DNA of 64,000 nucleotides from Heptranchias perlo (taxonomy: Eukaryota), in the NCBI RefSeq assembly GCF_035084215.1, contig NC_090330.1, positions 105,834,001 to 105,898,000 of the forward strand, read 5' to 3'. The notes beneath the pieces were generated by a model, which saw nothing but the letters and a program-made list of their open reading frames with translations, was not told the DNA's origin and made no database searches. Below, piece by piece: positions 1 through 59,112 of the stretch. The position numbers and the translations under genes are program-made. Numbering within the stretch: position 1 is the stretch's first letter; every line of letters starts with the position of its first letter.

Positions 1-169
1 ACTCTCCTCCAGATGATGGATGATCAACATACGATGGTAGTGTTCCTCCCTTAGACAAAATGTTATTTGTGTTTTGTACATAACAACAGTCATTGAATTT
101 CAATGTAATTCACTGTATGTGAAGCACTGTAATAAGATGCTATTTAAATACAAGGATTAATGTAGATGA

Positions 170-1228: not shown

Positions 1229-1445
1229 GATGTGGAGATGCCGGTGATGGACTGGGATTGACAAATGTAAGGAATCTTACAACACCAGGTTATAGTCCAA
1301 CTGTTTTATTTGAAAATCACAAGCTTTCGGAGGCTTTCTCCTTCGTCAGGTACACTCACCTGACGAAGGAGCAAGCCTCCGAAAGCTTGTGATTTTCAAA
1401 TAAAACAGTTGGACTATAACCCGGTGTTGTAAGATTCCTTACATT
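1229..1445. mobile_element. Penelope-like pseudo-LTR fold-back with two hammerhead motifs
   Basis: 89-bp inverted arms 1263-1351 and 1358-1446 (2 mismatches); family tail at 1229-1262 on the minus strand; TSD taacataaatct/taacaaaaatct at 1217-1228 and 1446-1457. Confidence 0.85.
1356..1392 (+). ncRNA. Minimal type I hammerhead ribozyme motif (Penelope-associated)
   Basis: TCAC-CTGACGA-A-GGAG caagc CTCC-GAAA-GCTT-GTGA: stem I, catalytic core, stem II and palindromic AGCT stem III. Confidence 0.8.
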
Positions 1446-2431
1446 TAACAAAAATCTATCAATCTCAGTTTTGAAATTTTCAATTGACCCCCAGCCTCAA
1501 CAGCTTTTTGGGAGCGAGAGTTCCAGATTTCCACTCCCCTTTGTGTGAAGAAATGCCTCCTGACATCACCCCTATGGCCTAGCTCTAATTTTAAGGTTAT
1601 GCTGCCTTGTCCTGGACTCCCCCCACCAGAGGAAATAGTTTCTCTCTATCTACCCTATCAACTCATTTAATCACCTTAAACACCTCAATTAAATCACCTT
1701 CATGGGAATACGAGCTTAGTCTATGTCACCTGTCCTTATAATTTAACCCTTTTAGCCCAAGTATCATTCTGATGCAATGAAATTTGCCTCAAATTTGGTT
1801 TTGACTTTGGAGGGTCTGCAATTTGTATCCTCTGAAGCCAACTTTGAATCGTAATATAAAAAGCAAAGTATGCAAGTCAAGTGTGGCACGCTTTGTGGAA
1901 CTTTGCGTATTTCCTGCAGAAAATTTTGATTTCAAACCTCCTTCCCTCCCCACCAAATGTTATCTCAAAATATCCCACAATTTCTGTTTCAGTTTTAAGA
2001 CAAAAATGATTGAGTTGCACAAAATTGATGCACTTTCTCAGATCATGGTCGAATGTGGATCATGGTGTAGGTTACAGAACGCAATGCATATATTGATAAT
2101 CTGATCAATTTGGCATATTTGATTCTTAGGTATGTTGGGGGGGGTGGTGACAGGGGATCCTTGGGTATTTATTTTTAGGTTAAGTACCACATGTCATTTC
2201 TGTACAGTACATTTTTTCTAAAATTGGGTTCAGGGTGCTGCTGGTTGTAAAAGTATAGTTTCAGTACCCAGTCGAGCACATGAGAAATGGGTTGTCTGGT
2301 GGAGTGGCAGGAGTGTGCCTTTGAAATTCATTCTTGATTCCTTTTCAAATTGGGGAGTTTAAAAATACATAAATACTTGTGAACTTAGTGCATTGCTAGT
2401 GGTTGTAAGTAATAGTAGATATCACTAACTG

Positions 2432-3290
2432 CATAGAATTTACAGCACAGAAACAGGCCATTCAGCCCAACTGGTCCATGCTAGTGTTTATGATCCATAC
2501 GAGCCTCCTCCCACCCCTCTTCATCTAATTCTATCAGCATATCCTTCTGTTCCTTTCTCCCTCATGTACTTCCTCTTAAATGCATCTCTGATATTCACCT
2601 CAAGTACTCCTTGTGGTAGCGAGTTCCACATTCTAACCACTCTCTGGGTAAAGAAGTTTCTCTTGAATTCCCTATTGGATTTATTAGTGACTATCTTATA
2701 TTTATGGACCTTAGCTTTGGTCTCCCCCACAAGTGGAAACATCTCCTCTACGTCTACCCGATCAAACCCTTTCATAATGTTAAAGACCTCTATCAGGTCA
2801 CCCCTCAGCCTTCTCTTTTCTGGAGAAAAGAGCCCCAGCCTGTTCAATATTTCCTGGTAGGTATAACCTCTCAATTCTGGTATCATCCTTGTAAATCTTT
2901 TTTGCACCTTCTCTAGTGTCTCTATATCCTTTTTATAATATGGAGACCAGAACTGTGCACAGTGCTCTCACTTGTGGTCTAACCAAGGTTCTATACAAGT
3001 TTAACATAACTTCTCTGCTTTTCAGTTCTATTCCTCTGGAAATGAACTCCAGTGCTTTATTTGCTTTTTAATGGCCTTATTAACCTGCATTGCTACTTTT
3101 AATGATTTCTGTTTTTGTGCCCCTAGATCTTTGCTCCTCTACTCCATTTAGACTCTTATTTTTTCAAGGAATATGTGGCCTCCTTATTCTTCTTATCAAA
3201 ATGCACCACCTCATAGTTATCTACGTTGAAATTCATTTGCCAATTACATGCCCATTCTGCAAGTTTATTAATGCATTCTTGCATTTTGTC
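2432..3290 (-). mobile_element. CR1 LINE 3' fragment (RT C-terminus and 3' UTR)
   Basis: ORF 2521-2907 QKRFTRMIPELRG...RRLRGDLIEVF...FFTQRVVRMWNSLP. Confidence 0.9.
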
Positions 3291-4599
3291 ACATAAAGAT
3301 GCCTTTTTGAATATCTCCAGCCTTGTAGTGGTGGTAATGTGTAGAAGAGGAACTGGAGAAGATTTCTAATTCTTGCACCTCTATACAATATACAAAGGGG
3401 ACTATCTTATTCTTGTGGAATGCAGAATACTTGGGTTGGGGGGGGCGAGGGGAGTCTGATGTTACTCAAAAAGGAAACCTCAGGTGACATCATCCTGAGA
3501 GGTATATGCCGAGACTGAACAAGAAATTGCAAACTTGTTGACCTTGTCAAAGAACCAGTGCTGTTTCATAGACTGCTTTCAAAACATACTCCGTGTACAC
3601 TCATAGTAATGTTGGCAGTGACAAGCTTCTATTAAAGATGCGTGGCCACCAGGAGGTTGGGTAAGTATTCCAATGGACAATGTAGCCTCAGAGTGGAGTC
3701 AGCTTGGATTATGATTCTAGTACCAGAGATGGAAGTAAGGTTACAAAAAAGGTCATTGTATTTTTTTACAGACAAGTAATTTGATTCCTGTTTGAATACT
3801 CTGCCTGATTTGTGATTTCCAATCCCACAGTACACTCCAAATCCCACAGTGACCTGCTTATATCAAACAGTAACCAGACAATTCACAAGAGCAAGAGGTG
3901 ACCATAGCATAAAGCAAACAGCTGTACTAGGCTCTCCCACAGTACTCTTCCCTCCTCCTCTGGGATTCATGTTTACACTTGGCCTAACACTGAAACGTCT
4001 ACAGTGCTTTGTGCAGGGTTCTGCAGAAAGAGAATGGAAACATCTTTTCAGAACTCTTCTACACTTGGAGATTAGAGTCTGGTGTTATGGTAACCTTTGT
4101 GGTTTTTGGAGGTGCCAAATTTTCCCAGCTTTGGAGAACCCCCGCGTGCCTTTTATATGAGATTGCAGGACATGGTCTTGTTTTCAGGGGTGTGGTCATT
4201 CCAATATGTGGGAAAGTTTGATCCATTTATTCTTCAGTCCCTGCCAGCAGCTATCCCGAGTCAGTTTACTTCCTTGGAAGAGAAGTGACCATAAATATCT
4301 CACCCCACGGGTTCTCCTTTTGGTTCACTAATGGCTCAATCCTGTTTCAAAGCTGCTCCACCATGCCAACTTATTTCAGGGCCTCCATTTTGAGTCGGAC
4401 ACCATTTTAAAATAAATCTCTTGTCATTCCAAAGAAGAATCCTATTTACATTAGGGTGGACAGAATTGTTTTGTGGGTGCACAGGATCAGTTCAAGGGAA
4501 ACTGAAATAACTAATGGTGCTAATAAAACTCCATTTTCAGAATGGTGTGCTGGATCAGTTTCAAAAATATAGTTTTGATTGAATGTTGAAACAAATATA

Positions 4600-4895
4600 A
4601 ACAAAGACTTGCACTTACATAATGCCTTTCATGATCTCAGGACATCCCAAAGCGCTTCACAGTGAAGTACTTTTCAAGTGTAGTCACTGTTATAAAGTAG
4701 GAAATGCGGCAGCCAAAATTGCACAGCAAGGTCCCGCAAACAGCAATGTGATTTAGTGATGTTGGTTGAGGGCTAAATATGGGCCAGGACACAGGGGAGA
4801 ACTCCCCTGCTCTTCTTCAAAATAGTTCCATGGGAGCTTTTACATCCACCTGAGAGGGCAGACGGGGCCTCGGTTTAACGCCTCATCCGAAGGAC
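4600..4895 (-). mobile_element. Deu-domain SINE fragment with L2-like tail
   Basis: Matches the Deu core and tail of the full copy at 33160-33585. Confidence 0.75.
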
Positions 4896-6011
4896 AGACG
4901 ATACCATTCCTGCTTAAATTGGTGTCATGTTTCCATCCAGGATTTTCTGTTGGCTCCAAAAGATATTTGTGGTAACATGTAGCTAAATGTTACAGGCAGA
5001 TCTGTCTCAACAGAAATAAATGTAAAAGATTTGGACAACTTAATTTTCTCCAATTAATGATGAAGCAAAATGTATATCTAGAAATGCTGTCCAGATCAAT
5101 TATTTTGCAGCAGGTTGGAATCAGCATAGTGACAAAGCAGATCAGGCGTAACAGCAAGACAGTCAGACAGTGAGGTGAGTTTATTGGTGAACTGATTTCT
5201 GCACCTTTCTCAGATACCGAGCCCAGCTTTTTGACAAATGGATTTGCCTTGTTTCATTTGAGACCAATTTTTAAGACCTGGACACCACACTTTCCCTCTG
5301 AAACCCAATTAACATTCAAGATATTGTATTTGTGTCAATACCAATGCAATACTGTATCTAAATACACAAATGAATTAAAAAACAATAATCTAGAATTGTA
5401 TGAATAGGGTTCAAAGGTAATTATCCCCGTCCCCCAGCCACAAAACAATAACAGATTAGAGCAGACTAGCATATAAATATTCATGTTCCACAATTATTTA
5501 ATTGAACTGTAAATAATAGCACAGTCGAGACCTGTTATTTTCATACTTCGTTTTAACTTAATTTGATAATTAACATAAAATGACTGTGTCGTTTCTCCCT
5601 CTCTCAAATTATGCATAAAGCCTCATTGCAATAAAACATGATTACCTACAACCCATTAAAGGCAGCATTATAATCTATTGCCAATAAGGACTCACACCCG
5701 CAGCCATTTCTTCATTCCTAATAGATCATGAACTATAAACCACATAACAAATGCAGTGAATTTAATAATGGCGAGGCCTGACCACAATTCTTTCCCCACT
5801 GTGTCTCAGAAACTGTAGATAGCAAGATAGTGCACAGAATACTGAAATTTAGAAGCTGAGGGATCAGTGGCTTTTAAAGTTATGGAATACGAACTATTCC
5901 CAGTTAAACTTGACCATAGTATCTTCTCAGAAAGTGTTGTAATATCAAAATTAGATTTTTTCTATATGTTGCACTTTTCCCTTGAGGGTAATCCCAAGGA
6001 TATCTCCTTTG

Positions 6012-6557
6012 AGACCTCACCTGGAGTACTGTGTACAGTTTTGGTCTCCTTATCTAAGGAAGGATACACTTGCCTTAGAGGCGGTGCATCGAAGGTTCAC
6101 TAGATTAATTCCTGGGATGAGAAGGGTTGTCCTTTGAGGAGGTTGAGTAGAATTGTCCTATACTCCCTGGAGTTTAGAAGAATGAGAGGTGATCTCATTG
6201 AAACATATAAGATTCTGAGGGGGCTTGACAGGGTAGATGCTGAGAGGTTGTTTCCCCAGGCTGGAGAGTCTAGAACTAGAGAGCAGAGTCGCAGGATAAG
6301 GGGTCGGCCATTTAAGACTGAGATGAGGAGGCATTGTGAATTCTCTACCCTAGAGGGCTGTGGATGCTGAGTCATTGAGTATATTCAAGACTGAGATAGA
6401 TAGAATTTTGGACTCTAGAGGAATCAAAGGATTATGGGGATCAGGCAGGAAAGTGGAGTTGAGGTTGAAGATCAGGCACGATCTGATTGAATGGCGGAGC
6501 AGGCTCGAGGGGCCATATGGCCTACTCCTGCTCCTATTTCTTATGTCCTTATGTTCT
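6012..6557 (+). mobile_element. CR1 LINE 3' fragment
   Basis: ORF LYSLEFRRMRGDLIETYKILRGLDRVD; 3' repeat ttcttatgtccttatgttctt. Confidence 0.9.
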
Positions 6558-6727
6558 TGTAACTCCCTTTCACTTAATAATTTCCCTGTGTAAATGCAAG
6601 AGCAGGAAGACAGCTGCAAAAGAAATAGGAACAGTGAAACTATTAAACTATTTTCTGCACTATGGCAGTTCCTAGAATGATACCAGGAATGTGATGTTTT
6701 AGTTATGAAGAAAGGCTCAAAAGTTAG

Positions 6728-7317
6728 TGGGGGTGAAAATCCCTCTGGGCCCGATCTTGACATGGGGCAGGCAGCGCGGCCAAAAGCGGGAGGCCGTGGC
6801 CCATGGCCCGAGGCCCTCCTATAATTTGGCCTCGGGCCTCATCTAATTAACGTGGGCAAGCTGTGGCGCCTGCCGCGCTTCCACAGATGCCCATTGCTGG
6901 CAGGTTAGTGCCTCAGGTTAGTGCCGTGGCGGGCGGTAGGACCGCGTTGGGGGGGGGGAGGCGCGGTGATCACGGCAGGAGTCCTGTGGAGTCGGGAGAA
7001 GCATTCCTGCTCCTCCTGGCTCCACATCAATTATATAAAAAAAAATTCAGCTTACCCTTTTAGTGGCGGCCGCTTACTAGGTTGCGTTCAAGCATAAGAA
7101 ACCTGAGGCTTTGAATCCTGCTCCATTAAAGGGCAGCCCAATTTATCATAGGGGTCCTAAAACAGGCATCAGGCCCTTAGTTAGACTACGTAAAGGGCCT
7201 AATGCCTGCTTCAGATGGCCACCATGGACGTCCGAAAATCGTCCACAGCCAATATGGCGTCAGATGTTTTACAGGTGGACATGGTGCGCAGGGCATAGCC
7301 CAGCGAAATTGGTCACT
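6728..7317. mobile_element. GC-rich non-autonomous DNA transposon (MITE-like, probably Harbinger)
   Basis: GC-rich block with ggggtgaaaat.../...gaaattggtcac ends; shares gcattcctgctcctcctggctccac with 14670-14715. Confidence 0.4.
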
Positions 7318-7988
7318 ATTGTCTCCCATTTTCTGTTAGGAAAACGGGTGCAATGATGAACAATTTCTATCCCATTATTTTTCTTGCACTGGTTAAAGGG
7401 AATGTAACGGAGGTTGTCAACATTCTGAAAGGTTTTGAGACGTTAGGTGGTGAAAGATTGCTTCCTCTGTTTTGGGCTTATTGGTAACAAGAGAGCATAG
7501 GTTCAGGATGATCACTAGAAGAACAAAGAAAGCATTCAGAGGACACTCCTGTACACAGACGGTTATCAGAACACAGAATGCTTTACCTCAGGTGGTACTG
7601 AGGTAAAGACAATGGCCTGGGTCTGCCACTTGTGTCCAACAGCCTCCAATTACCTGCCCTTCCACTTCGATGACTGGCTGACTCAGGTGCAGGAAACTCC
7701 AGCCAATGACCTCATTTTAATAGGAAACTGGACATGTATTTGAAAAGGAAGAATGTAAAAAGAATTCATGGAGATGCTCTGGCAAAGGTGCGATGGGCTA
7801 AACAACCACCTTCTGCGTTGTAATTTCTATGATTCTATCCTAACCCTCAGCAATATGAAACATAAAAGGGGGGGTAGGGATTTTTAACCCCCAAGAACGG
7901 GTGGGTTGGGGTCAGTCGGGACCTTAATTAGTTCAAATGTAAGGAATCTTACAACACCAGGTTATAGTCCAACAAATTTATTTTAAAA

Positions 7989-8025
7989 TCACAAGCTTTC
8001 GGAGATTATCCCCTTCGTCAGGTGA
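7989..8025 (-). ncRNA. Minimal hammerhead ribozyme motif
   Basis: TCAC-CTGACGA-A-GGGGA taa TCTCC-GAAA-GCTT-GTGA. Confidence 0.8.
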
Positions 8026-8259
8026 ATGAGTGAAAGGTTCTCAAATCGCATATCTTATATTAGGCTGGGACAGCATCACACCAATCAAAAGGTGTCGTTG
8101 TTGTTCAAACAGGCCAGTCACGGAGAACAGCATGTCCCAGTACACTGGATATACATTGTGTCAATTACACAGACAAAGAAAGAGACCCAAATGGCAGTGA
8201 GAGAGAGAGAGAGAATATTAAAACACATAACTTTTTTTTTCCCCTTTTTGCTGGTGGGG

Positions 8260-8400
8260 TTACGTGTAGCGTGACATGAACCCAAGATCCCGGTTGAGGC
8301 CGTCCTCATGGGTGCGGAACTTGGCTATCAACTTCTGCTCGACGATTTTGCGTTGTCGTGTGTCTCGAAGGCCGCCTTGGAGAACGCTGACCCGAAGATC
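8260..8400 (-). pseudogene. Penelope GIY-YIG endonuclease C-terminal fragment
   Basis: Manual translation DLRVSVLQGGLRDTRQRKIVEQKLIAKFRTHEDGLNRDLGFMSRYT*, with the E..LI...GLN motif that ends PLE GIY-YIG domains. Confidence 0.85.
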
Positions 8401-8749
8401 CACCCCAGTCCATCACCAGCACCTCCACATCTTAATTAGTTCAGGCAGGTGGGTAGTTATCGCAACAAATAATGTCCTTACGAGACGTTAGCTAAGCCTT
8501 TTTAAATTGATTTTCATCGACCTTTAAATTTAACGCCTCCGGCGCGGGCTTCCCTGGGTTCGTCAATCTCGCCAGTAAAAAGGAGGTGAGAAGAGACTGA
8601 TCATGAGGTACGTGCCTTTATTGCACTGCTTGTAGGCCAGGTGGAGCAGGAGTGTTTCCTCCAGGCCCAACAAGCTTACCTGCTGCAATCAGGCCCCCAC
8701 GATGGGCCAACCCCCTCCTCCACGTCCGAGAGCCCCCCCTGCCGGTGTC

Positions 8750-8970
8750 CAAGATCATCCCCGATCTCTGAGACACCCCGATCTCCGAGATACCCCCTGA
8801 TCTCAAGACCCCCCTCAATCTCTGAGACACCCCTCAATCTTTGTGAACCCCTCCCGATCTTCATGAACCCCCCCCCCGATCTCCGAGACCCCCCCACCGC
8901 GATCTCTAAGAACTTCCCGATCTCCAAGACCCCTCCGATCTCCGAGGCCCTCCGGTGACTGAGACCTCCA
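8750..8970 (+). repeat. Degenerate ~17-18-bp minisatellite (ccccgatctccgagac-like)
   Basis: About 10 imperfect units of gatctc(c/t)(g/a)agac-cccc. Confidence 0.75.
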
Positions 8971-9414
8971 CCCCCAGCGACCAAGGCACCACCCCCGGTG
9001 ACCGAGACCAAACCCTCCCTCCCCGGCGTCCGATTTCACACCTCCCCAACTTCATACTAGCCCAACGATGTCCAATTCCCTCCCCACCTCCCCAACCCCG
9101 CGATCGTCACCCCCATCCAACCCTCAAAGATCCCAATCTCTCCCCGACCCCCACCCCCCCACCCCCATCCGACTTACCTTCCATCCGCTCTCCGGCTGCT
9201 TTCCCCCATGAAAAGCAACTGGCCTGTCAATCAAGCTGGCTAGTGGGCAGGAAACCCTTTGAAAGATTTTAAACTAGGTTCTACTGTTAAATCCAGTACG
9301 ACTGCGGGAGATGCTTACTTCTGGGTTTTCCATACGCAAAACCCTGCCCCCCACTCCTTGCTCTCTTCCCAGCTCCAAATTAAAATCCAGGCCAACGAGT
9401 GGAACATGTCTTAG

Positions 9415-9850
9415 AGTCACACAGCACCGAAGGAGGCCATTCGGCCCATTGTGCCTGTGCCGGCTCTTTGAAAGAGCTGTCCAATTAGTCCCACTCCCCT
9501 GCTCTTTCCCCATAGCCCTGTAAATTTTTTTCCTTAAAGTATTTGTGCAATTCCCTTTTGAAAGTTACTATTGAATTTGCTTCTACCACCCTTTCAGGCA
9601 GCGCGTTCCAGATCATAACAATTCACCACGTAAAAAAATTCTCCTCATCTCCCCTCTGGTTCTTTTGCCAATTCCCTTAAATCTGTGTCCTCTGCTAACC
9701 GACCCTCTTACCACTGGAAACCGTCTCTCCCTATTTACTCTATTAAATCCCCTCATAATTTTGAACACCCTCTATTAAATCTCCCCTTAACCTTCTCTGT
9801 TCTAAGGAGAACAATCCCAGTCTCGCCACATAACTGAAGTCCCTCATCAT
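9415..9850 (-). mobile_element. CR1 LINE 3' fragment
   Basis: aggaggccattcggccc...ctctttgaaagagct 3' end plus RT C-terminal remnant. Confidence 0.85.
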
Positions 9851-10135
9851 TTCTTCATCAATATTAGTCTTCAAATAAGAAAAAAAAGAACCATAGCACC
9901 AACCACAGTCTCAGGACATCCCAAAGCACTTAACAGGCATGAAGTACTACTTAGAATTGCTGTCACTGTTGTAATGTAGGAAACATAGCAGTCAATTTAA
10001 TTGTTTATTTTCCTAAAATGCATTAGCGATAGAAAGAAGGACTTAATTCAAGGGGGTAATTTAGCCAGATCTTTATTAAATAAATACTTGCTGAGCATTA
10101 GCACGTTTGTGCTTTGTGCTACTTAGTGTTCTGGG

Positions 10136-10276
10136 ACATTTTCACATCGTTCACCTGACGAAGGAGGAAGCCTCCGAAAGCTTGTGAATTTAAAATAAAA
10201 TTGCTGGACTATAACTTGGTGTTGTAAAATTGTTTACCATTGTCAACCCCAGTCCATCACCGGCATCTCCACATCA
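10136..10276 (+). mobile_element. Solo Penelope pseudo-LTR unit with hammerhead (10151-10187)
   Basis: Perfect 12-bp TSD tagtgttctggg at 10124-10135 and 10277-10288; TCAC-CTGACGA-A-GGAGG aag CCTCC-GAAA-GCTT-GTGA; ends in the family tail. Confidence 0.9.
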
Positions 10277-11745
10277 TAGTGTTCTGGGCACTGTTGTTTG
10301 TTTTCCTTCACTTTCCGTTTATTCTGTTTTCACTTTTAGTTGTTCTTTCTTTAGTCATACTTTTTCCGTGGTTTGATTGCTTTAACTTTTCAGTATTTGT
10401 GAAAGAAAACGATTTTTTGGCAACTGTAGGACACTGGAATTTTACAAAACAAAACCCCCCAAAATATTTACATTTTTACCAAACTGAGAAACACACATAC
10501 ACACACACATACATAAAAACTCTGAAACCTAAATATACCTGATATGAGAGACATTGGAAAGCTGGTGACTCTTTCACATAATCTGAATGTCTGCAGGCCC
10601 AACCATACTGGATTACTATGAGGGAGAGGTCGAGTCCTTGACTGAGATTAATATTGAACTCAGCCCGATTCACTGCCTTTGGGTTTCCCACTGGAGACTC
10701 ACTTGTATCCAGACGCGAAACATCTTATTAACCTTCTTCGCTTTGCTGCATGTCAGTGCAATTCAGTCATATGGTGATAGGCAGTACTGGCGGTGTGATC
10801 TGCCTGGATCCAGGAACTCTGTAAATTGGTTCAGTCAGAGATTTATGTGCATTCTCTGATTAAATCAGGCTAAATTCTTCCAGGTTTGCTTTGATTCCCC
10901 TTCCCGAGAGCATTGTCTGACAGGACATGCTTATTCAGATGAAATGGTTGTGCAACCCCTGTCAGCTTCAATGACAGGGCGCGACAGGAGTTGGTTGATC
11001 TTGACGATTTGTGTTGATAGCCTCTCCTTTCCATAGTTGGTGCTGTGACTCTTATGCCCTATGCCTTCGTTAGCCTGGTTGCTCCTTCTTGAACAATGGT
11101 GGTCGGCCTTCAACAAGCTTATGTTGTACTAACGCTGGTCAAATTCTGAGTGGTGATAACCTATACCTTCTTGGGATTGATGAATGATAAGTCTGGTGTC
11201 ACTGCTGTGACTGTGGACTTTGATTAGTCAACATTCGTACATTACCTAGTCTGATTTCTCCTGTACCATTGCTGTACATTGATGGAACCTGCCACCCTAT
11301 GTTTAGGTGCATTTGTCCCTGTTCTCTTTATTGCCTCCTTGTTTGTTTCGTAATCTGAAAAAAAAAAATTACAATAAGAAAGTTTCAAAACAAGAAAAAA
11401 AAATCAAGCAGGAAATATTTGTCATAATACAACAATGAGCAGCCAGTAGACAAGTGTAGACAAAAGCATTTCACAGGATAATCATACGGTCACACAGCTT
11501 TGGGGCATAAAATGATTACAAGCCTTTCAAATATTACTATGGGCCTTATATGAGAAAGGGAAAGAAAGAACTTGGATTTACATGGAGCCTTTCATGACCT
11601 CAGGACGTCCTGAAGCGTTTTACTGCCAATGAAGTACCTTTGAAGTGTCGTCATTGTTGTAATGTAGGAATATAGAACAAGTTATCAGATTATAACATAT
11701 GTATTACTAATAACTCTCCTTATAAAACAGTTATTCAGACCTTTA

Positions 11746-12368
11746 TGTTGGCCTTTATTACAAGAGGATTTGAGGACAGAAGTAAAGATGTCTTACTGCA
11801 ATTATATAGGGCCTTGGTGAGACCGCACCTGGAGTATTGTGTACAATTTTAGTCTTCTTATCTAAGAAAGGATATATTTGCCATAGAGGGAGTGCAACAA
11901 AGGTTCACCAGACTGATTCCTTGGATGGTGGGATTGTCGTATGAGGAGAGATTGAGTAGACTGGGCCTGTATTCTCTAGAGTTTAGAAAAATGGGAGGTG
12001 ATCTCATTGAAACATACAAAATTCTTACAAGGCTCGACCGGGTAGGTGCAGGGAGGATGTTTCCCCTGGCTGGGGAGTCTAGAACCAGGGGTCACAGTCT
12101 CAGAATAAGGAGAAGGCCATTTAGGACTGAGGTGAGAAGACATTTCTTCACTCAGAGGGTGGTGAATCTTTGGAATTCTCTACCCCAGAGGGCTGTGGAG
12201 GCTCAGTCATTGAGTACATTCAAAACAGAGAGCGATAGATTTCTAGACATTAAAGGCATCAAGGGATATGGGGATGGTGCAGGAAAATGGCGTTGAGATA
12301 GAAGATCAGCCATGATCTTGTTGAATGGCGGAGCAGGCTCGAGGGGCTCCTATTTCTTATGTTCTTAT
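11746..12368 (+). mobile_element. CR1 LINE 3' fragment
   Basis: ORF 11892-12296 QQRFTRLIP...GDLIETYKIL...FFTQRVVNLWNSLP. Confidence 0.9.
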
Positions 12369-13696
12369 GTAGGACAAGTCAGTACTCCCCCCTTCCAGAA
12401 TCACCCTACTTCCAGGCTAAAGTTTAATGCCCAAACAGAATTATTACGACAAAGACTTCTATTTAAATTGCCTCACAAATAATATGTTGGCGACATTTTG
12501 TGTTTACAGTTTCATATCGGAAGTGATTAGGTTGCTATTTCTGGCATAGCGGAATAGCTAATACATCTATGAAAATCTCACCCTTTCTTATCTTCTGTTG
12601 ACCCACATATTTAGAGCCTGTAAGAGGGATTTTTTTTTCTCTAGCAGATATAGAGTAAATGATATGCTCTATACAAGCATGCTTAGACACAGCCACAAAC
12701 AACACCAAAGGAAAAACAATGAATAATGTAAAGATGCAACTAACAAACAAAACCTTGCTCTGTCGCTCTCCAATTTGTACAGGAGTTTTAAATGCATCTG
12801 TGGATCCTTCTCTATTCCCAGACTCCCACTTTTCATGCAGAGGAGTTAATGGGGTTATAATCTCATAATTAAACCAGATAATTTTAATTTCTCCAATGAC
12901 ACTTTATTATGATAATCTTGTTAAGATTGTAGTGTTCATTTGTAGCCACATATTACGATTTGGCTTGCATGGATGTTTTTATAGCTACCAAGCCACTAAA
13001 TAATTAAACAGGCAGGAAAATAGAAGCTGAAAAGACTTGCTGTTTACGAGGAACAAAGTCATTTTTTACCCTGCATGAATCTATTAAGGGACTCAGCCGG
13101 CAAAGACATCGTAGATTTATCGTAAGTCACCAAAGAGAAGATGAAGCTTCATTAACTGAACCTTTAATTTCCAATTTAATGAAGAAACTTTTGTCGATAA
13201 CAAACTTGAATTGTACACCAATTACACAATTTGACAAACAAGTGAAAGAAAACACAAAGTAAATCTCATTAGCCCTAAATGAAATGAATGGAATTGATAC
13301 TTACTTCAAAAGGTAAATGCTTGAATGAAATCTTATGGCAGCTGTCGGCAAACTCTATTGTTCTTTAGCTGGTATTTGGTGTGTGAGGTTTTCTTTATTA
13401 GAAATAAAATATAATAAGCTTGACTTTCAAGGTCTACTGGCTTTTTAAAGCATTTTGACCTACATGTACCCTGTGTTTGTATGTACAGTTGTTCTTTTCT
13501 TAACCTTACATAGCTAAATCATTTTGAACTTTTATTTCAGGAGCATTATATTGCCTTTTAAAATAGATTTTCAAAGAATAAAGTATGATTCAGTTTTGCT
13601 TATGAGTTATTGATCACACCTGACTGCTTAAATGCAGCATGCCTTTATGTCGGGTGCATGAACACTGGAGCTGAATGAGGAGCATAAGGATTTGCC

Positions 13697-14270
13697 TTTG
13701 TAACCTCCATACTCGACTATTCCAATGCTCTCCTGGCCGGCCTCCCACTTTGCACCCTCCGTAAACAGGACCTCATCCAATGCTCTGCTGCCCATTTCTT
13801 AACTCACAGCAAGTCCCGTTCACCCGTCACTCCTGTGTTCACTGACCTACATTGGCTCCCAGTCTGGCGACGTCTCGATTTTCAAATTCTCATCCTTGTG
13901 TTCAAATCCCTCCAAGGCTGCAATCCTCCCTATCCCTTTAGCCTCCTCCAGCCCGACAACCCTCCGAGATCTCTGCGCTCCTCCAATTCTGGCCTCTTGC
14001 GCATCCCCGATTTTAATCACCCCACCATCCCAGGCCATGCCTTAAGCTGCCTAGGCCCTAAGCTCTGGAATTCTCTCCCTAACCTTCTCCGCCTCTCTAC
14101 CTCTCTCTCCTCCTTTAAGATGCTCCTTAAAACCTAACTCTTTGACCAACTGTCCTAATATCTCCTTACGTGGCTCAGTGTCAAATTTTGTTTGATAATC
14201 GCTCCTGTGAAGCGCCTTGGGACATTTTACTACATTAAAGGCGCTATATAAACGCAAGTTGTTGTTGTTT
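13697..14270 (+). mobile_element. L2-clade LINE 3' fragment
   Basis: ORF LHWLPVWRRLDFQILILVFKSL...GPKLWNSLP...FKMLLKT; tail gcgctatataaacgcaagttgttgttgtt. Confidence 0.85.
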
Positions 14271-16021
14271 ATCAACAGATTAAAAACATTGGGATGTCCC
14301 TTTGTTTAGTTGTCAACTAACTGTGACATGTATTGTTGTATGGAGCTGTATGACTAGGAAGGTTTGAGGTTCAAATCTTATGGGGCAATTTTAACCCTGG
14401 CTGCCTGGTAGAAAATCACCCATTGAGACTTACTAGCTGAGGTCCCGATCTTTTCCGATTCCGATTCCGATTATAATCTGCTCTTCTCAGGTCCTTCTTT
14501 GAATGTGCAGAGCAAGCTCCGATGACGTCATTGTGACCTGAATGCTATTTTAACCAGAGGCCTGCGTGGGGAAGCGGTTGTGGCTTCTCCACCGGATCAA
14601 CCTAGCGCAAAGCGGAGTCGGGCCCAAAAAGATAAGTCGTTTTCCTTTTTCCTTACTCTCCTTGTGGAGCCAGGATGAGGAGGAAGAGGAGGAAGAGTGC
14701 TCCTCCTTGCCCCACAAGGAGACTTTAGGCTCCTCTCCCTCTCGTGTGGGCCTCCTGAATCTCTTCCCCGCCACTTACCTGAGTGCCGAGGGTCCGTGCC
14801 TTCAGTCCCTAGCGATGGCCTCTTGCCCTCCATCATTGCGTTCACGATCGCTGGCCAGGGGATGATGTTTCCCACCAATTTCAGGCGGGAGACTGACTAA
14901 GGCTCTGCCGGTGAGGCCTCTGAGTTAAACTCTCCCGGGATGGTTTACCTCCCACCCTGAATCCTACATTGCAATAGTGACTATGTTTCAAAAGTACTTC
15001 ATTGGCTGTAAAGCGCTTTGGGACGTCCTGAGGTTGTGAATGACGCTGTATAATTTCAAGATCTTTCTTTCTTTCTTTAGTCTCTGTTGAGTTGGCTGAC
15101 CACTGCCAAAGAAGTGGTGAGGGGGCTATAACCGACTTCAGTATTCTCAAGTTAAACTGGCCGTGATTCCTGATACTGATCACATCCAGTGTGTCCCACT
15201 TACAATTAGGCTCACTGTGGAGAATCTGAATGGTTTGGATCCTTGACTTTGATCTTCAAATAGTGTCTTTGATCTTGGATCAGACTGACCCCTTTATTTA
15301 ATTAGCAGATTTGTTTTCTTTAAGCAAAAGATCTGAGTCATTGTACTGTGAAGACATTGATCCAATTATCTAACAACCAATTTGACATATACATGCAAAT
15401 TGTTTAGACACCTCCTTTATATGTCTACTAAATTGAAGGGAAGTTTGCCAAGTGTGGTTAAATGCACTTATACTTGCAGCATTGTTTTGATTTCTTTTGA
15501 CAACGTTAAGTGGAAAATTGTGTTTAATTTTATCTGGGACAGCAAATGGTTTTCTCCCAGAAGTGTTGATTTTAGGCAGTTAAAGAGTTAAAAAGCAGAC
15601 ATAAGAGTACAGTTCTTCTGAATCCTGGTTTATATAAAAAAAATGTGTTAGGTGATGATGGGGCTGCTGACAGAGCAGTAATGTGAAAGATAGCAGCAGG
15701 CAGATTAAGTCTGCCCCAATTTATACCCGAAACATCATTTTGGACAGCCAGGAGAGCGGGATATCATATAAACATGTCAAAATTGATGTTTAGTGTAAAA
15801 ACGGCAGTGGACTCCCATCTGTCTCCCACCGTCTTTGCCATTACTGAACCAGTAGCTCTCTCAGCTGCCACATCATATCATAATGAATTCTTGTAAACAG
15901 GAATTTTATCCTACATGATAGGAATTCATGGTGGCGTATAACTTTAAAAACTGAGAGGTAACAAGGGACTGGAGAGCCAGATCGGCTTACTACTGATGTT
16001 TGGAAATAAAATCTCACTTAC

Positions 16022-16545
16022 TTGAGCACCACACTTGGGAAGGATGACAAGGCCTTAGAGATGGTGCAGAAGAGATTTACTAGAATGGTACCAGGGATGA
16101 GGGACTTCAGTTATGTGGAGAGAGTGGAGAAGCTGGGGGCTATTCTCCTTAGAACAGAGACGGCTAAGGGGAGATTTGATAGAGGTATTCAAAATCATGA
16201 ACGGCTTTGACAGAGTAAATAAGGCAAAACTGTTTCCAGTGGCAGATGAGTCGGTAACCAGAGGACACAGATTCAAGGTGATCGGCAAAATAGCCAGAGG
16301 CGACATGAGGAAACATTTTTTCTTGCAGCAAGTTGTAACGGTCTGGAATGCGCTGCCTGAAAGGGTGGTGGAAGCAGATTCAGTAGTAACATTCAAAAGG
16401 GAATTGGATATATACTTGAAGGGAAAATATTTACAGGGCTAGGGGAAAGGGCAGGGGAATGGAACTAATTGGATAGCTCTTTCAAAGAGCCGGCACGGGC
16501 ACGATGGGCCGAAAGGCCTTCTCCTGTCCTGTGCCTACTATGATA
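16022..16545 (+). mobile_element. CR1 LINE 3' fragment
   Basis: ORF GLFSLEQRRLRGDLIEVFKIMNGFDRV...WNALP. Confidence 0.9.
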
Positions 16546-16658
16546 CTTTGGCTCTTTTGCTGAGGTTCATATTTTCACTTGAAATATTAAGATTCTACCT
16601 ATGTAGAGGTCACTGTGTGCAGTGAAACCATAAACGCATTCTTTTTTAAATACATTGA

Positions 16659-16862
16659 CATAAGAACATAAGAAATAGGAGCAGGAGTAGGCCAATCGGC
16701 CCCTCGAGCCTGCTCCGCCATTCAATAAGATCATGGCTGATCTGATCCTAACCTCAAATCTAAATTCATGTCCAATTTCCTGCCCGCTCCCCGTAACCCC
16801 TAATTCCCTTTACTTCTAGGAAACTGTCGATTTCTGTTTTAAATTTATTTAATGATGTAGCT
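16659..16862 (-). mobile_element. CR1 3' UTR fragment
   Basis: cataagaacataagaaataggagcaggagtaggcc terminal repeat and hairpin. Confidence 0.8.
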
Positions 16863-16920
16863 AACAGATCACCCGTGGCATTGCTCGGAGTGAGTCAGGT
16901 GGTTCTCTGTTTTAAAACAA

Positions 16921-17517
16921 ATGTAAGGACTTGCACAACACCAGGTTATAGTCCAACAGTTTTATTTGAAATCACAAGCTTTCGGAGCTTACCTCCTTCA
17001 TCAGGTGAGTGAAGGGTTCTAAAAACGCAAAGCATATATAGTCAGAGAACAATGCCTGGTGATTACAGATAATCTTTCCAACTGCCCCCTATCACACCTC
17101 GGCTGGGAGATGATCACAGCAATCAAAGGAGTCGTTGGTGTTCAGACAGGTTAGCCACGGAAAACATTACATCCCAGAATACTGAATACACAATGGGTCA
17201 GATCACAAAGACAGAGAGAGAAAGAGACCCAAAAGGCAGAGCGAGAGAGAGAGAATGACCAGTTGTATTAAAAACAGATAACTTTTTTTCGCTGGTGGGG
17301 TTACATGTAGCGTGACATGAACCCAAGATCCCGGTTGAGGCTGACTTCATGGGTGCGGACTATATATGCTATGCGTTTTTAGAACCTTTCACTCACCTGA
17401 CGAAAGAGGTAAGCTCCGAAAGCTTGTGATTTCAAATAAAACTGTTGGACTATAACCTGGTGTTGTGCAAGTCCTTACATTTGTCCACCCCAGTCCATCA
17501 CCGGCATCTCCACATCA
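16921..17517. mobile_element. Penelope-like element with inverted pseudo-LTRs, two hammerheads and a GIY-YIG remnant
   Basis: 127-bp inverted arms 16917-17043 and 17358-17484; hammerheads at 16972-17008 (-) and 17393-17429 (+); RTHEVSLNRDLGFMSRYM* at 17301-17357 (-); 13-bp TSD with 1 mismatch at 16908-16920 and 17518-17530. Confidence 0.9.
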
Positions 17518-17812
17518 TGTGTTAAAACAATAGAAGCAAAGTGTGACAAAGGAAAGAAAGAACTTACATTTATATAGGGTCTTTCATGACCTCAGGACGT
17601 TCCAAAACGCTTTACAGCTAATGAAAATTATTTGAAATGTAGTCACTGTTCGAATGTAGGAATTTAAAAAGGCATTGTGATGTGGAAAGTGCCATGGGAA
17701 GTAAGTGTGACACTTACAGAAGTACATGCTGTATGCAAGACTTTTAATATATTACAGATTTACGATGACATTGCACACAGTCATCAGGCAAGCTTTCCAT
17801 CACTGACATGTT

Positions 17813-17986
17813 GGGGTAGATTTTATTTTTCACCATCCGGCAGAAAACTGGCAGTAGCATATCCGCTGCCCATTATATACCCAAACTTAAATGGAAAGGA
17901 CAATCGGGGGAGAGTTGGAGTGGGTGTGTATAATGGGCGGCTGATCCATTACTTTGTGTTCAGTGTTGAAAGTTAAAACCCAGCCC
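17813..17986. mobile_element. Small palindromic MITE
   Basis: Ends ggggtagatttta / taaaacccagccc; inner inverted pair gctgcccattatataccca / tgggtgtgtataatgggcggc. Confidence 0.55.
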
Positions 17987-18220
17987 ATTATTTCATTTAA
18001 AGTGTATTTAAGCAGCACAGAGATATTCCCAATTATTAGTGCTAAATTGCATTACAATCGTGAATGACCTGATTTGGACTAGTTCAGATTGACTTTTCAA
18101 ATACCTGAAGTTCATACGCTCAGGTTTGGCCGTGACTTTAAAAGAAGTTGCGGATAATATATGTCGATGTTTTCTGTATCCTGCCATGGTTCCTGTCTGA
18201 TATCCAGCCCTTGACTTTCC

Positions 18221-18347
18221 ACTCACCTGACGAAGGAGGAAGCCTCCGAAAGCTCGTGATTTCAAATAAAACTGTTGGACTATAACCTGGTGTTGTAAGA
18301 CTCCTTACATTTGTCCACCCCAGTCCATCACCGGCATCTCCACATCA
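18221..18347 (+). mobile_element. Solo Penelope pseudo-LTR unit with hammerhead (18223-18259)
   Basis: TCAC-CTGACGA-A-GGAGG aag CCTCC-GAAA-GCTC-GTGA followed by family body and tail; no clear TSD. Confidence 0.85.
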
Positions 18348-19369
18348 TTTCTAATGTGAGGCAGCTGCTCTTTACTGTTCTCGCAGTGTTGCAGGATGGA
18401 AGGGGTCTGCTAGTTTACTGGAAGTCCTCAATCCCCTGGCGTTCCATTGTGGAGAACATCCAAAGCCGCTGGTTTTGTGTGGAGTACTAGGCCCTTGGCC
18501 ATCTCCAGATAGGTTATTGGATCTTTGACGGTCTAATTGTGGTGCTTTTTGTCCCCTGATAACATCACGGAGAAGATGCTTCTGTATCTCCTTACAGTCT
18601 TCACAGGAATGCAGAAGCCTGTGTTTATTTAGGATTATGCTTTTGCTTCATGATTACTTAGAGATAAGAAATCCAAAGGCTGAGCCAAAAAAACACTGTG
18701 CTGCTTCCTACAAACGCTAAATTGGCTGGAGAAAAAATGCATTTGTTCCAATAATGATTTTTGTTGTTAGTTATAATCTTCAATCAAATGGGTGAGAATT
18801 ATTGACCAGTAACTATGTAACTATGACGCTTCAAAAACATAACTTTCAATTTCACATCATGTTCGCCTCATCCAAACAGAAAAGACTGCAGTGTTTGCAA
18901 TACATTGAATAAATGAGCATCACTGTAACACTTCACTTTCACCCTTTTAACAGCTCACAAATCTCGTCTCAGGCACTTAGAGTAAATTTGCACTGTAACT
19001 ACCTAACTGTTTACAAAGATGGGAACGGATCAAAGCAGAATGTTCCACATTAGCCGTTGAGTGTTTTAGGATAGAATGAAAGCAAGATTTCTGAAAGAGA
19101 AATAGACGTTTTAAATAACAGTATTTAGGACAGGCCAGACTCCTCTACAAGCTAAGATTGGACCATGTTCTTGACTGACATTCCCACCTACATTTCATCC
19201 AGAACGTCAGTTTCACAGGGTTTGAACCATCTCGGGAAGGAGACAGAATTGGTGTCGGAAGGATATCCCGTCCTATACCACTCAAATGCCTTTCCTTGTG
19301 GATCTGGAGGTTCCACTGACTGCATTTGTTGAACTGACTGCGAGCTTGGAACATTTTACCCTCTTGACT

Positions 19370-20020
19370 ACAACAACTTCTATCAATATAGTGCCGTTAA
19401 CGTAGTAAAACATCCCAAGGCGCTTCACAGCAGCGTTATCAAACAAAATTTGATATTGAGCTACATAAGGAGTTATTAGGACAGGTGACAAAAAGTATGG
19501 TGTGGAGATGCCGGTGATGGACTGGGGTTGACAATTGTAAACAATTTTACAACACCAAGTTATAGTCCAACAATTTTATTTGAAAATCACAAGCTTTCGG
19601 AGGCTTCCTCCTTCCTCAGGTGAATGTGAAAGTATGGTGAAAGTGGTAGATTATAAGGCGGGTCATAAAGGAGGAGAGAGAGGTGGAGAGGTTTAAGGAG
19701 GGAATTCCAGAGCTTAGGGCCTAGGCAGCTGAAGGCACGGCCGCCAATGGTGTGGCGATGAAAATTGGGGATGCGCAAGAGGCTAGAATTGGAGGAGCGC
19801 AGAGATCTCGGAGGGTTGTAGGGCTGGAGGAGGTTACAGAGATAGAGAGGGGTGAGGCCATGAAGGGATTTGAAAACAAGGATGAGAATTTTAAAATAGA
19901 GGCATTGCTGGACCGGGAGTCAATGTAGGCCAGTGAGCACAGGGGTGATGGGTGAACGGGACTTGGTGTGAATTAGGATTCAGGCAGCAGAGTTTTGGAT
20001 GAGCTCAAGTTTACAGAGGG
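19370..20020 (-). mobile_element. L2-clade LINE 3' fragment interrupted by a Penelope unit
   Basis: ORF RIPNFHRHTIGGRAFSCLGPKLWNSL; caacaac tail. Confidence 0.85.
19501..19628 (-). mobile_element. Solo Penelope pseudo-LTR unit with hammerhead (19587-19623)
   Basis: TSD aaagtatggtg at 19492-19502 and 19629-19639; core CTGAGGA...GAAA-GCTT-GTGA on the minus strand. Confidence 0.88.
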
Positions 20021-38690: not shown

Positions 38691-41600
38691 TGGCACAGAT
38701 GGTGCTGAAAAGATAACAGTGTGTGAACGACACACGCCATTATTAATGCGCCAAACAGCCAGCAACTTGTGGCGAGGAAGAGATACCCCGTGAATCGCGA
38801 ATCGCCACAAGTTGCTGGCCGATTTGCGCCACTCCACCGTTAGCTTCGTGAACACAGCATCTCGCCCTTCACCGTCTCCTGAGTTTCATGAAGTTGCTGC
38901 ATTTGCACATTAATTGCCCATTAAACTCACCACAGGAAGTTAAGTCTCGTAATTAATAAGCACAAGTACCCAATTAACGATGTGATAATTATTAATGACT
39001 GCCAATCAACTTCTCTTACCCAGAAAGTGAACAATTAACTAATTCCTTCAGGTTGTGAATTGTTCAAAGACATTTTAAAAAAGTCAACTTATAAATCTTT
39101 ACACTTTTTTCTTACTTTTCCTTTCTGTCTCTTTTTTTCTTTTTCTCTTCATCCAATCTTTCTTTTCCTCTCTTTATTTCTCTTTCTCATCGTTATCATA
39201 GTAGGTACCGCTGAAGAGGAGGCCATTCAGCCCATCGTGCCTGTGCCGGCTCTTTGAAAAACCTATCTAATTAGTCTCATTCCCCTGCTCTTTCCCCATA
39301 GCCCTGTAAAAGTTGCCCCTTCAAGTATTTGTCCAATTCCCTTTTGAAAGTTACTATTGAATCTGCTTCCACTACCCTTTCAGTTCATTACAACTCGCTG
39401 CATAAAAAAATGTTTTCTCATGTCGCCTCTGGCTCTTTTGCCGATCACCTTAAATCTGTGTCCTCTGGTTACCGACCCTTCTACCACTGGAAACAGTTTC
39501 TCCCTATTTACTGTGTCAAAACCGTTCATGATTTTGAACACCTCTATCAAATCTCCCCTTAACCTTCTCTGTTCTAAGGAGAACAATCCCAGCTTCTCCT
39601 GTCTCTCCACATAACTGAAGTCCCTCATCCCTGGCACCATTCTAGTAAACCCCTTTTACACTCTGTCTAAGGCCTTGACATCCTCCCTAAAGTGTGGTGC
39701 CCAGAATTGAACACAATACTCCAGCTGAAGCCTAACCAGTACTTTTTAAAGGTTTAGCATAACTTGCTTGCTTTTGTACTCTATGCCTCTAAATAAAGCC
39801 CAGGATCCCATGTGCTTTTTTAACAGCTTTCTCAACTTGTCCTGCCACCTTTAAAGATTTGTGTATGTGCAGCGCTAGGTCTCTCTGTTCCTGCACCCCC
39901 TTTAGCATTGTACCATTTAGTTTATATTGCCTCTCCTCATTCTTCCTACCAAATTGTATCACTTCATACTTCTCTGCGTTAAATTTCATCTGCCATGTAT
40001 CTGCCCATTTCATCAGTCTGTCCGTGTCCTCCTGAAGTCTGTTACTATCCTTCAAATTGCAAAAATTGGATAGCCAGGTGGTGAGGGATAGAATACTAGA
40101 GCCTAATCTTTAGTTGCTTCCAAGCCTTTATTCATAGAAATTCCCTTTGCACACACACCACACCCTAGATAAGCTCTCCTGTAAAAAGGGTATAAGCGAG
40201 TCCCCAATTGATAACCACCACCTGAATACAATTAACACTCATTGATTTAAATCATATTGTTTACTACATTTCCGAGTTTCATGTCATCTGCAAACTTTGA
40301 AATTATATTCTCTATACCCAAGTCCAGGTCATTAATATATATCAAAAAGAGCAGTGGTCCTAATACTGACCCCTGGGGAACACCACTGTATGCTTCCCTC
40401 CAGTCTGAAAAACAACTGTTCACCACTACTCTCTGCTTTCTGTCCCAAAGCCAATTTTGTATCCACACTGCCACTGTCCCATTAATCCCATGGGCTTTAA
40501 TTTTGCTAACAAGCCTGTTATGTGGTACTTTATCAAATGCGTTTTGAAACTCCATATACACAACATCAACAACACTACCCTCATCAACCCTCTCCATTAC
40601 TTCATCAAATAACTCAATCGAGTTAGTTAAACACGATTTTCCTTTAACAAATCTGTGCTGACGTTCATTTATTAGCCCGTACTTTTCCAAATGTCAATTT
40701 ATTGCGTTCCAGATTACTGTCTCTAAAAGTTTCCCCACCACCAACGTTAGGCTGACTGGCCTGCAATTGCCGGGTTTATCCCTCTCCCCTGTTTTGAACA
40801 GGAGTGTAACATTTGCAATCTTCCAGTCCTCTGGCACCATCCCCATATCTAAGGAGGATTGGAAGATTGTGGTCAGAGCCTCCGCAATTTCCACCGTTAC
40901 TTCCCTCAGTAACTGAGGATGCATCCCATCCGGACCGGGTGACTTTTTTACTTTGAGTACTGCCAATCTTTTAAGTACTTCCTCTTTATCTATTTTTATC
41001 CTATCCAATATTGCTACCAGCTCCTCCTTTACTGCTACAATGGCAGCATCCTCTTCGCCAGTGAAATATTTAGTGCCTCAGCCATGCCCGCTGCCTTTAC
41101 AAGAGGATTTCCTTTTTTGTCCCTAATCGACCCCAGGCTTCCTTTGATTACCCTTTTACTATTTATATGCTTATACAAAACTTTTGGGTTCCCTTTTATG
41201 TTAGCCACCAATCTATTCTCTCTCTTTGCCTCTCGTATTCCCACTTTTTAGATCTCCTCTGTACTTTTTGTATTCAGTCTGGTTCTCTACTGTATTATGA
41301 ACCTTACATTTATCATAAGCCTCCTTTTTCTGTTTCATTTCAATCTCTATATCTTTAGTCATCCAGGGAGCTCTAGATTTGGGTGTCCTTCCTTTTTCCC
41401 TCGTAGGGATGTGTCTACTCTGTACCTGAACCAACTCCTCCTTGAAGGCCTCCCATGGTTCAATTATTGTTTTGTCTACCAAGTTTTGATTCCAATCCAC
41501 CCGGGCAAGACCCCTTTTTAACTCACTGAAATTTGCCCTCCTTCAGTTCAGCACTTTTACATTTGATTGTTCTTTGTCCTTTTCCATAACTATTCTAAAT

Positions 41601-55119: not shown

Positions 55120-55323
55120 GGATGGGCAATAAATGCCGGCCTTGCCAGCGACGCCCACATCCCGTGAACGAATAAAAAAAAAAGAAACTCAAAATTGTGG
55201 AACTTATGTCCTATGTCTCTCTCTCTTTTGTCCCTTTAACAATCTTCAGGATTTTAAAACCAACACTTGTTGTCACCTATTTTTTGATTTACCTTGTCTT
55301 TGTCTTTTTCCCCTTTCAACTTT

Positions 55324-55412
55324 TGTAAGGAATCTTACAACACTGGGTTATAGTCCAACAGATTCCTTACATTTGTCTACCCCAGTCCATCACCGGCATC
55401 TCCACATCATCT
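55324..55412. mobile_element. Minimal Penelope-family remnant without hammerhead
   Basis: Inverted tgtaaggaatct/agattccttaca plus family tail; 10-bp TSD tttcaacttt at 55314-55323 and 55413-55422. Confidence 0.8.
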
Positions 55413-58583: not shown

Positions 58584-59112
58584 CACAATGGGTGGCATCA
58601 GTTGTGGGTCTTCATAGTGATCCACAGGAAAGGGCATTATTGCACAAACCAGACAAAATTCGCAAAGACGTGACAGTAGTGGTGACAATATATTATGTGA
58701 TGTGAGTTGCTCCGAAATTAAGTATAAGTAAAAACCATGACAAACCCTCAAACACCCTTGTGCACCCCCTTCATGCTCACGACACGTTTGCCTTACGCTG
58801 CCTACTGCACATATGTGATGCATGCCCTGTGGCTGCAGCACAGGTAGTGGCAGGTTGAGTGAGGCTGACCGTGAAACAGATGCACGAGAGGGTGAGTATG
58901 AGATAGAGCCATGAGATTGTATGAGGATTGGGTTGAGTGGTAGTGGCGGGATGAGTACTGGCGAGGTGAGTAAGTGCAGGTAAGATGAGGATGAGGTTTG
59001 AGTGGGTATGAGGGGTGATGTGACAGAGTAGTGTTGGCAATGCAGAAGGAGAAGTAGGGTGGGGGCAGTGATGTGGCAGACGGAGTGTAGGGGAATGAGT
59101 AAGTGTACTCAC

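Follow-up and report, generated by a model that had tools for sequence, protein, structure and literature searches.

Short hammerhead ribozyme copies in a shark genome as likely run-off stubs of a Neptune-type Penelope-like element

A 64,000-nucleotide stretch of the genome of the shark Heptranchias perlo (contig NC_090330.1, positions 105,834,001 to 105,898,000, hereafter the window) carries eight minimal hammerhead ribozyme motifs within 18.4 kb, which raises the question of what these motifs derive from and whether their crowding has any special meaning. Our analysis places them in the pseudo-long terminal repeat (pLTR) of a Neptune-type Penelope-like element (PLE). Most copies are dead stubs, likely left when the reverse transcriptase (RT) was primed close to the start codon and ran off at the 5' end of a transcript that the ribozyme had not cut. 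Hammerheads of this kind are already known, and the result on the 5' ends is a modest, testable addition to the PLE mechanism.

All eight motifs proposed in the initial annotation are found at their positions and on their strands (Table 1). A loose search for the hammerhead core gives 14 matches in the 64 kb, among which stems I and II are present in these eight only. A strict hammerhead pattern matches the 3.25-Gb genome exactly at 50,764 places, against none for the reversed-pattern control, and the motifs in the window are therefore not chance occurrences. Each unit consists, in order, of stem I, CUGANGA, one extra A, a stem II of 4–5 bp, GAAA, GCUY and stem I again. The CUGANGA and GAAA core with U16.1-H17 is present in all eight motifs, and an intact core is present in 138 of 184 sampled copies. 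[quoted passage not shown] The CUC triplet occurs in one and U7 in two of the 138. Both look like private mutations, and from the variation reported earlier (C, T or G at N7, CUU or CUC as cleavage triplet) the true subfamily variation is C or G at N7. The G10.1-C11.1 pair is held in seven motifs and lost at 17393, where A replaces G10.1 and the lowest-energy fold is not a hammerhead. Rfam hammerhead models had been proposed as a check, and no hammerhead family matches the window at E ≤ 1. The eight motifs are confirmed, as sequences, to be genuine minimal hammerhead ribozymes of a kind already known.

The parent of these motifs is best seen in a complete element, L051, which has an uninterrupted 891-residue open reading frame (ORF, 3846-6521) for RT and GIY-YIG endonuclease, and a hammerhead in each flanking repeat. 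The two hammerheads lie at 3721 and 6760, 3,039 nt apart, and thus mark both pLTRs. The order in L051 is a TATA-like box, the hammerhead, AATAAA about 10 nt past the predicted cut, an inner 3'-end site, a 34-nt tail and, directly after the tail and 93 nt past the predicted cut, the ATG. Pfam recognises the RT of the 891-residue ORF (RVT_1, E=3.4e-10). The endonuclease has the CCHH arrangement, with two cysteines between the VVY and YIG motifs and two histidines downstream, as read from the sequence; the Pfam GIY-YIG model matches neither this ORF nor the 45-residue fragment in the window, and is listed for many homologues. Another copy, L013, has an ORF that combines a YIDD-bearing RT, a CX4CxxC linker and a GIY-YIG endonuclease, and the C-terminus of this ORF matches the translated window at 8251-8397(-). 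The CX4CxxC linker lies between RT and endonuclease in both ORFs and points to the Neptune or Nematis clade, which have a CX2-5CxxC linker in common (PMC8557442). Because the hammerheads are physically linked to an ORF for RT and GIY-YIG endonuclease, they can be assigned to a Penelope-like family. The initial annotation had them as minimal type I hammerheads of one such family, which holds for the linkage but not for the number of lineages, as several subfamilies and six insertions are present. From its domains and linker, the parent is an endonuclease-positive PLE, probably of Neptune type.

The pLTRs, inverted 5' copies, a tail of 30-40 nt and target-site duplications (TSDs) of variable length are all present in this PLE family. 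The closest named proteins are uncharacterised shark sequences with 96% and 86% identity, followed by turtle sequences at about 45%. Genome-wide, 105,204 matches are found for an anchor motif that lies 3' of the ribozyme. The repeats of L051 look identical and its ORF is uninterrupted, which suggests that the family is young. A comparison of L012/L013 with L001, L004 and L005 shows about 94% identical ORFs with very different TATA-box surroundings, and suggests promoter turnover between these subfamilies. Shark-directed literature searches, whose coverage left out most subscription papers, returned no paper on this element family.

The eight motifs belong to six insertions, since those at 1317 and 1356 and those at 16972 and 17393 are the arms of single inserts flanked by TSDs; the earlier count of eight motifs in 18.4 kb is right for motifs and not for events. 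Five of the six insertions have TSDs of 11-13 bp. The sequence common to the copies extends about 90 nt beyond each motif, and the nearest relatives differ between the window copies, with 0-7 differences to each.

How these short copies arose can be read from where they begin. For 124 copies selected through a motif that lies 3' of the cut, 5' ends were mapped against 72 long reference copies; the selection comprised exact matches within the initial 4 Mb of contig C1 and every copy in the 244-kb C6 region, and positions are relative to the predicted cut. Forty copies reach the analysed limit, 18 start at -175..-56 and 52 at -55..-27; 4 begin within the ribozyme and 10 at +2..+16, and none begins at the cut or +1. 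The peak has a density of about 1.8 ends per base, compared with 0.15 on both flanks, and five of the eight window motifs fall within the peak. The peak moves with the TATA box, being at -45..-48 where the box is at -75/-76 and at -39 where it is at -69. Nine of 20 short copies in the former group start at TATA+28..30, and four of four in the latter at TATA+30. Genome-wide, with the count restricted to junctions at which none of the four bases before the joint agrees with the element, subfamily A has 15, 317 and 111 junctions at -49, -46 and -43, respectively, and subfamily B has 6 and 568 at -42 and -39. The pile-up of 5' ends at TATA+29/30 would correspond to the transcription start, because it matches the usual spacing between TATA box and start. 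This is the spacing usually seen at RNA polymerase II promoters. A splice acceptor was rejected as the cause of the edge, as no AG precedes it in either subfamily. A TATA box with an initiator-like sequence has been described in rotifer pLTRs (PMC3846280). No report of PLE copies starting at the transcription start was found in literature searches that likewise left out most subscription papers, and the genomic coverage in Supplementary Fig. S2 of PMC11167929 may already show the pattern.

The 3' ends are equally structured. Among 122 copies with enough flank they are bimodal, at about +34-44 and +69-83 from the anchor, the two groups being about 35 nt apart, which agrees with the pair of internal RT start sites on either side of the tail in a lizard PLE (PMC11167929). 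Of 86 tailed copies, 18 extend at their 3' end into the opening codons of the ORF. Head-to-head pairs account for about half of the arms, and usually one arm is tailed and the other ends at the inner site; the tail alone forms one arm in insertion 2 and in the fragment at 55327-55412. A TSD-like match of 8-16 bp, mostly 12-13, flanks 49 of 56 head-to-head candidates. An Rfam match to MIR8562 at window 1306-1403 was rejected (57.7 bits against a gathering threshold of 211), as it reflects only the inverted repeat, or long hairpin, of such a pair. If transcribed, head-to-head pairs such as this hairpin are a possible source of double-stranded RNA.

Pairs whose arms come from two subfamilies are rare, with one TSD-sharing case among 47 pairs compared, and a two-RNA origin of the pairs is not established by it. 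L133 (G000:C1:4023050 and 4023207) is a head-to-head pair with one exact 12-bp TSD and arms matching different subfamilies, with 5 differences between the arms and 1 to each nearest relative; insertion from two RNAs or gene conversion is possible. A second flagged pair turned out to be two separate window insertions. Mosaics of upstream and downstream repeat types would be expected if cDNA often jumped between different RNAs, and the 72 long copies show near-complete congruence with one possible mosaic. Neither the 47 pairs nor the 72 long copies gave a direct sign of such jumps.

These ends can be brought together in one scheme. By the example of a lizard PLE (PMC11167929), the RT-endonuclease would nick both DNA strands about 12 bp apart and prime cDNA internally at two sites. 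With RT primed near the ATG on the 5' repeat, about 90-140 nt would be left to copy and the product would always span the hammerhead. The stubs would be cap run-off cDNAs of the 5' untranslated region (UTR), and since they span the hammerhead, they would record uncut RNA. Two short cDNAs joined by microhomology would give the head-to-head pairs. The hammerhead would cut slowly, as a dimer through its palindrome and probably with the help of an element protein, and cut RNA would be a minor template at most. In the lizard PLE in vitro, uncut RNA is the main substrate, and hammerhead cleavage, which is dispensable for insertion, needs the element protein (PMC11167929).

Several observations weigh against this scheme. 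In the group with TATA at -68 the starts are scattered, and 6 of 12 copies begin between 2 and 15 nt upstream of TATA+30. Numerous ends fall 1-19 nt downstream of the predicted start, and ends at 0..+16 are slightly in excess. By eye, about 65 of 100 (subfamily A) and 74 of 100 (subfamily B) listed peak junctions are recurrent head-to-head joints with 2-3 nt of microhomology, which could itself favour the peak positions; the other 35 and 26 of 100, scaled up, correspond to roughly 110 and 150 junctions, well above the controls of 15 and 6. The 124 copies hold both arms of pairs and a few duplicated loci and are not independent, and the covariation sample described below is hand-picked from 16 related sequences only. 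Both the start site and the cleavage are predictions from the DNA sequence. The promoter of Penelope in D. virilis has been described as internal and TATA-less (PMC2377424), and the use of a TATA box is hence not universal.

The recurrent inverted joints with microhomology, which make up most of the listed peak junctions, also bear on a different origin of the 5' pile-up, in which RT stalls or cDNA folds back at the hammerhead structure and the edge is not an RNA 5' end. Self-priming has been proposed for inverted PLE junctions (PMC3846280). However, the edge shifts with the TATA box (-46 versus -39) and not with the hammerhead, the stems and the bases just 3' of them, where stalling would be expected, hold few ends, and the same step is seen in the non-recurrent junctions. 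By eye, roughly half of the unequal pairs have the tail on their shorter arm, which simple fold-back cannot yield. We consider stalling or fold-back unlikely.

It is also possible that the short copies are a self-propagating mini-element, comparable to a short interspersed element (SINE) or a retrozyme, with an internal promoter and mobilised in trans by the PLE. The short copies do have TSDs of their own and favour a particular 5' end, the promoter of Penelope is internal (PMC2377424), and non-autonomous hammerhead derivatives of PLEs have been described (bioRxiv 10.64898/2026.07.22.740005). However, the short copies differ from the long copies of each subfamily at only 0-7 positions, in parallel in many subfamilies, no head-to-tail arrays of monomers are seen in the window, and the 18 tailed copies mentioned above end within the first ORF codons. 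A mini-element is quite unlikely on these grounds.

Equally doubtful is the model of PMC4209133, in which cleavage by the hammerhead is efficient in vivo and the template is mainly cut or circularised RNA. Conservation of the core across subfamilies speaks for it, and so do 62 genome-wide junctions exactly at the cut against 27 three bases upstream. Some special template is required for copies longer than one unit; if it were a circle, no junction would remain at the cut, and a circle may explain a share of the long copies. However, none of the 124 sampled copies starts at the cut, and the difference between 62 and 27 is by our estimate mostly what the composition of A-rich flanks gives. The junctions at the predicted start are 5-9 times more numerous within single subfamilies, and a circle has no barrier at TATA+30.

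Returning to run-off from uncut RNA, the region behind the ribozyme suggests how the pLTR itself may be organised. AATAAA is present 9-11 nt past the predicted cut in 157 of 163 copies (1397-1402 is an example from the window) and is followed by a GU-rich stretch, which looks like a poly(A) site right behind the ribozyme. Because of this arrangement a repeat similar to U3-R-U5 can be suggested, for which long copies would need a template jump, tandem read-through or a circle. In a more speculative form, the pLTR would resemble retroviral U3-R-U5, with transcripts starting at TATA+30 and ending after AATAAA and a strong-stop cDNA jumping to the 3' repeat; the stubs would be failed strong-stops, and the palindrome would serve less for cleavage than to bring the two copies of the repeat together for the jump, or a pair of RNAs bound to a dimeric protein. 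We hold this form to be rather unlikely; if true, it would explain how PLEs regenerate their pLTRs.

The hammerhead itself shows marks of constraint. Core positions show 91-100% constancy across 67 long copies, while the stretch from the TATA box to stem I varies among subfamilies. The fifth pair of stem II is G-C, A-U, C-G or G-U across subfamilies, and swaps in stem I keep the pairing. In a set of 16 hand-picked related sequences, for which shuffle counts are not probabilities, 91.4% of cells are paired against 28-47% in slid controls, and 4 of 11 pairs are changed on both sides. The covariation in stems I and II that the initial annotation had named as a test is seen between subfamilies; its statement that variation follows the fold with pairing kept applies to these stems, with the broken pair at 17393 as the exception. 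Judged from the sequences, the hammerhead is maintained by selection in the source lineages and not in individual stubs. In place of stem III, all eight window motifs have the palindrome AGCU at 15.2-16.2 with a self-duplex of -2.5 kcal/mol. The palindrome really has six bases, as it includes A14 and U17, and its predicted duplex is more stable (-4.3 kcal/mol). The six-base duplex may, according to this prediction, trap an inactive form and lower the activity. The window stubs, being promoter-less, are unlikely to be working ribozymes.

The crowding of the motifs is less unusual than it appears. The 244 kb around and including the window contain 20 cores in 16 insertions, 8 of the cores being in this cluster. 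Six insertions in 18.4 kb recur in the first 4 Mb of contig C1 (in partly duplicated loci), and a uniform model gives about 8 such runs genome-wide. A special cause was rejected. What is seen is a locally dense occurrence of a very common repeat, with mild enrichment only, and no special explanation is needed. That the motifs form a host-selected group of active ribozymes within one transcript is highly improbable, because the local enrichment (P about 0.04 against the surrounding 244 kb) stands against mixed strands, several subfamilies, separate TSDs, one broken core pair and the equal cluster and expected runs just described. Elsewhere, at L129-L132 (G000:C1:3.93-4.00 Mb) and L120-L121, copies lie inside duplicated (AG)n-rich units, a passive amplification of stubs by local duplication.

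Table 1. Insertions, hammerhead motifs and related features in the window
Feature	Position	Strand	Remarks
Insertion 1	1229..1445	both	Head-to-head pair of short pLTR copies; minus arm with 34-nt tail, plus arm stops at inner RT start site; TSD 1217-1228 / 1446-1457 (12 bp, 1 mismatch)
Hammerhead	1317..1353	-	Stem I trimmed to 3 bp by inversion junction; predicted cut between 1321 and 1320; 5' end of copy 31 nt upstream of predicted cut
Hammerhead	1356..1392	+	Predicted cut after 1388; 5' end of copy 37 nt upstream of cut
Insertion 2	7936..8431	-	Endonuclease C-terminus, 3' UTR and hammerhead; TSD about 7924-7935 / 8432-8443
Hammerhead	7989..8025	-	Stem II includes a G-U pair; cut predicted between 7993 and 7992
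PLE GIY-YIG endonuclease end	8251..8397	-	Last 45 codons and stop; C-terminus same as in full-length L051 ORF
Insertion 2, plus-strand part	8398-8431	+	Tail alone
Insertion 3	10136..10276	+	Solo 141-nt copy, tailed; start at subfamily TATA+28; TSD about 10124-10135 / 10277-10288
Hammerhead	10151-10187	+	6-bp stem I
Insertion 4	16921..17517	both	Head-to-head pair; TSD 16908-16920 / 17518-17530
Insertion 4, minus arm	to about 17358	-	Long arm
Hammerhead	16972-17008	-	In minus arm
Insertion 4, plus arm		+	From TATA box, tailed
Hammerhead	17393-17429	+	In plus arm; G10.1-C11.1 broken
Insertion 5	18220..18348	+	Solo short tailed copy; TSD looked for, none found
Hammerhead	18223-18259	+	Sole CUC triplet
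Insertion 6	19503..19628	-	Solo 126-nt tailed copy; TSD 19492-19502 / 19629-19639 (11 bp exact)
Hammerhead	19587-19623	-	
Ninth fragment, without hammerhead	55327..55412	both	Inverted inner segment and tail; TSD 55314-55326 / 55413-55425

Other mobile elements are present in the window. A long endonuclease and RT frame of a non-LTR retrotransposon lies at 52198-55119 (+), as frames of 168 and 804 amino acids with one stop between them. Fragments at 2521-2967, 11853-12296, 40247-41077 and 56777-57811 are presumably CR1/L2-like, and frames at 57852-58705 (+) resemble a fragment of a Harbinger-type transposase.

If the 5' pile-up is the transcription start, it explains the abundance of solo hammerheads in PLE-rich genomes and extends the in vitro result on uncut RNA templates to a genome-wide record; the regeneration of pLTRs then becomes testable with the intact 891-residue element. 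The family is a natural dataset for this purpose, with more than 100,000 repeat copies and subfamilies that differ in the distance from TATA box to hammerhead, in which junctions can be read at base resolution.

Minimal hammerheads have been reported in the pLTRs of fish Neptune, Xena and Poseidon elements, with weak cleavage as dimers, and activity of the dimer through the palindrome is a published model (Cervera & De la Pena 2014, PMC4209133). A review cites dimer cleavage by Lunse et al. (PMC6765202). The motifs described here share with those of PMC4209133 the type I architecture, a palindrome (15.2-16.2) instead of a stem III, an extra nucleotide after position 9 and ahead of 10.1, the G10.1-C11.1 pair and a stem I of 4-6 bp, as well as a location in both pLTRs at a spacing of about 3 kb, numerous solo copies and pairs on opposite strands at distances of 100-700 bp. 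However, stem II has 4-5 bp here and 7-8 there, and more than 50,000 exact matches in this genome compare with about 4,000 in coelacanth and 9,000 in Xenopus, which were counted by other methods. The available text of that study names no sharks and maps no 5' ends of solo copies.

Retrozymes derived from PLEs are reported in one chondrichthyan, together with cleavage in one of nine Xenopus dimers (bioRxiv 10.64898/2026.07.22.740005). Such animal non-LTR retrozymes are likewise PLE-derived non-coding units with a type I hammerhead, but they form head-to-tail tandem repeats, each unit with a hammerhead, whereas the window copies are solo or head-to-head with TSDs and show no such arrays. With Neptune and Nematis (Craig et al. 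2021, PMC8557442) the shark element shares the C-terminal GIY-YIG domain with CCHH, the CX2-5CxxC linker, 5' truncation, inverted 5' copies, the tail and the variable TSD. A further parallel is with PAc, a Poseidon element of Anolis carolinensis (Frangieh et al. 2024, PMC11167929), which has two internal RT start sites bounding a tail of 30-40 nt, cleaves both strands in AT-rich DNA, uses uncut RNA as its main substrate and has its hammerhead near the junction of pLTR and ORF. The PAc ORF begins within the hammerhead, and the RT start sites lie about 111-118 nt inside this ORF, whereas in the shark element the whole hammerhead belongs to the 5' UTR and precedes the ATG by 93 nt, the outer site is at the ATG and the linker is of Neptune type.

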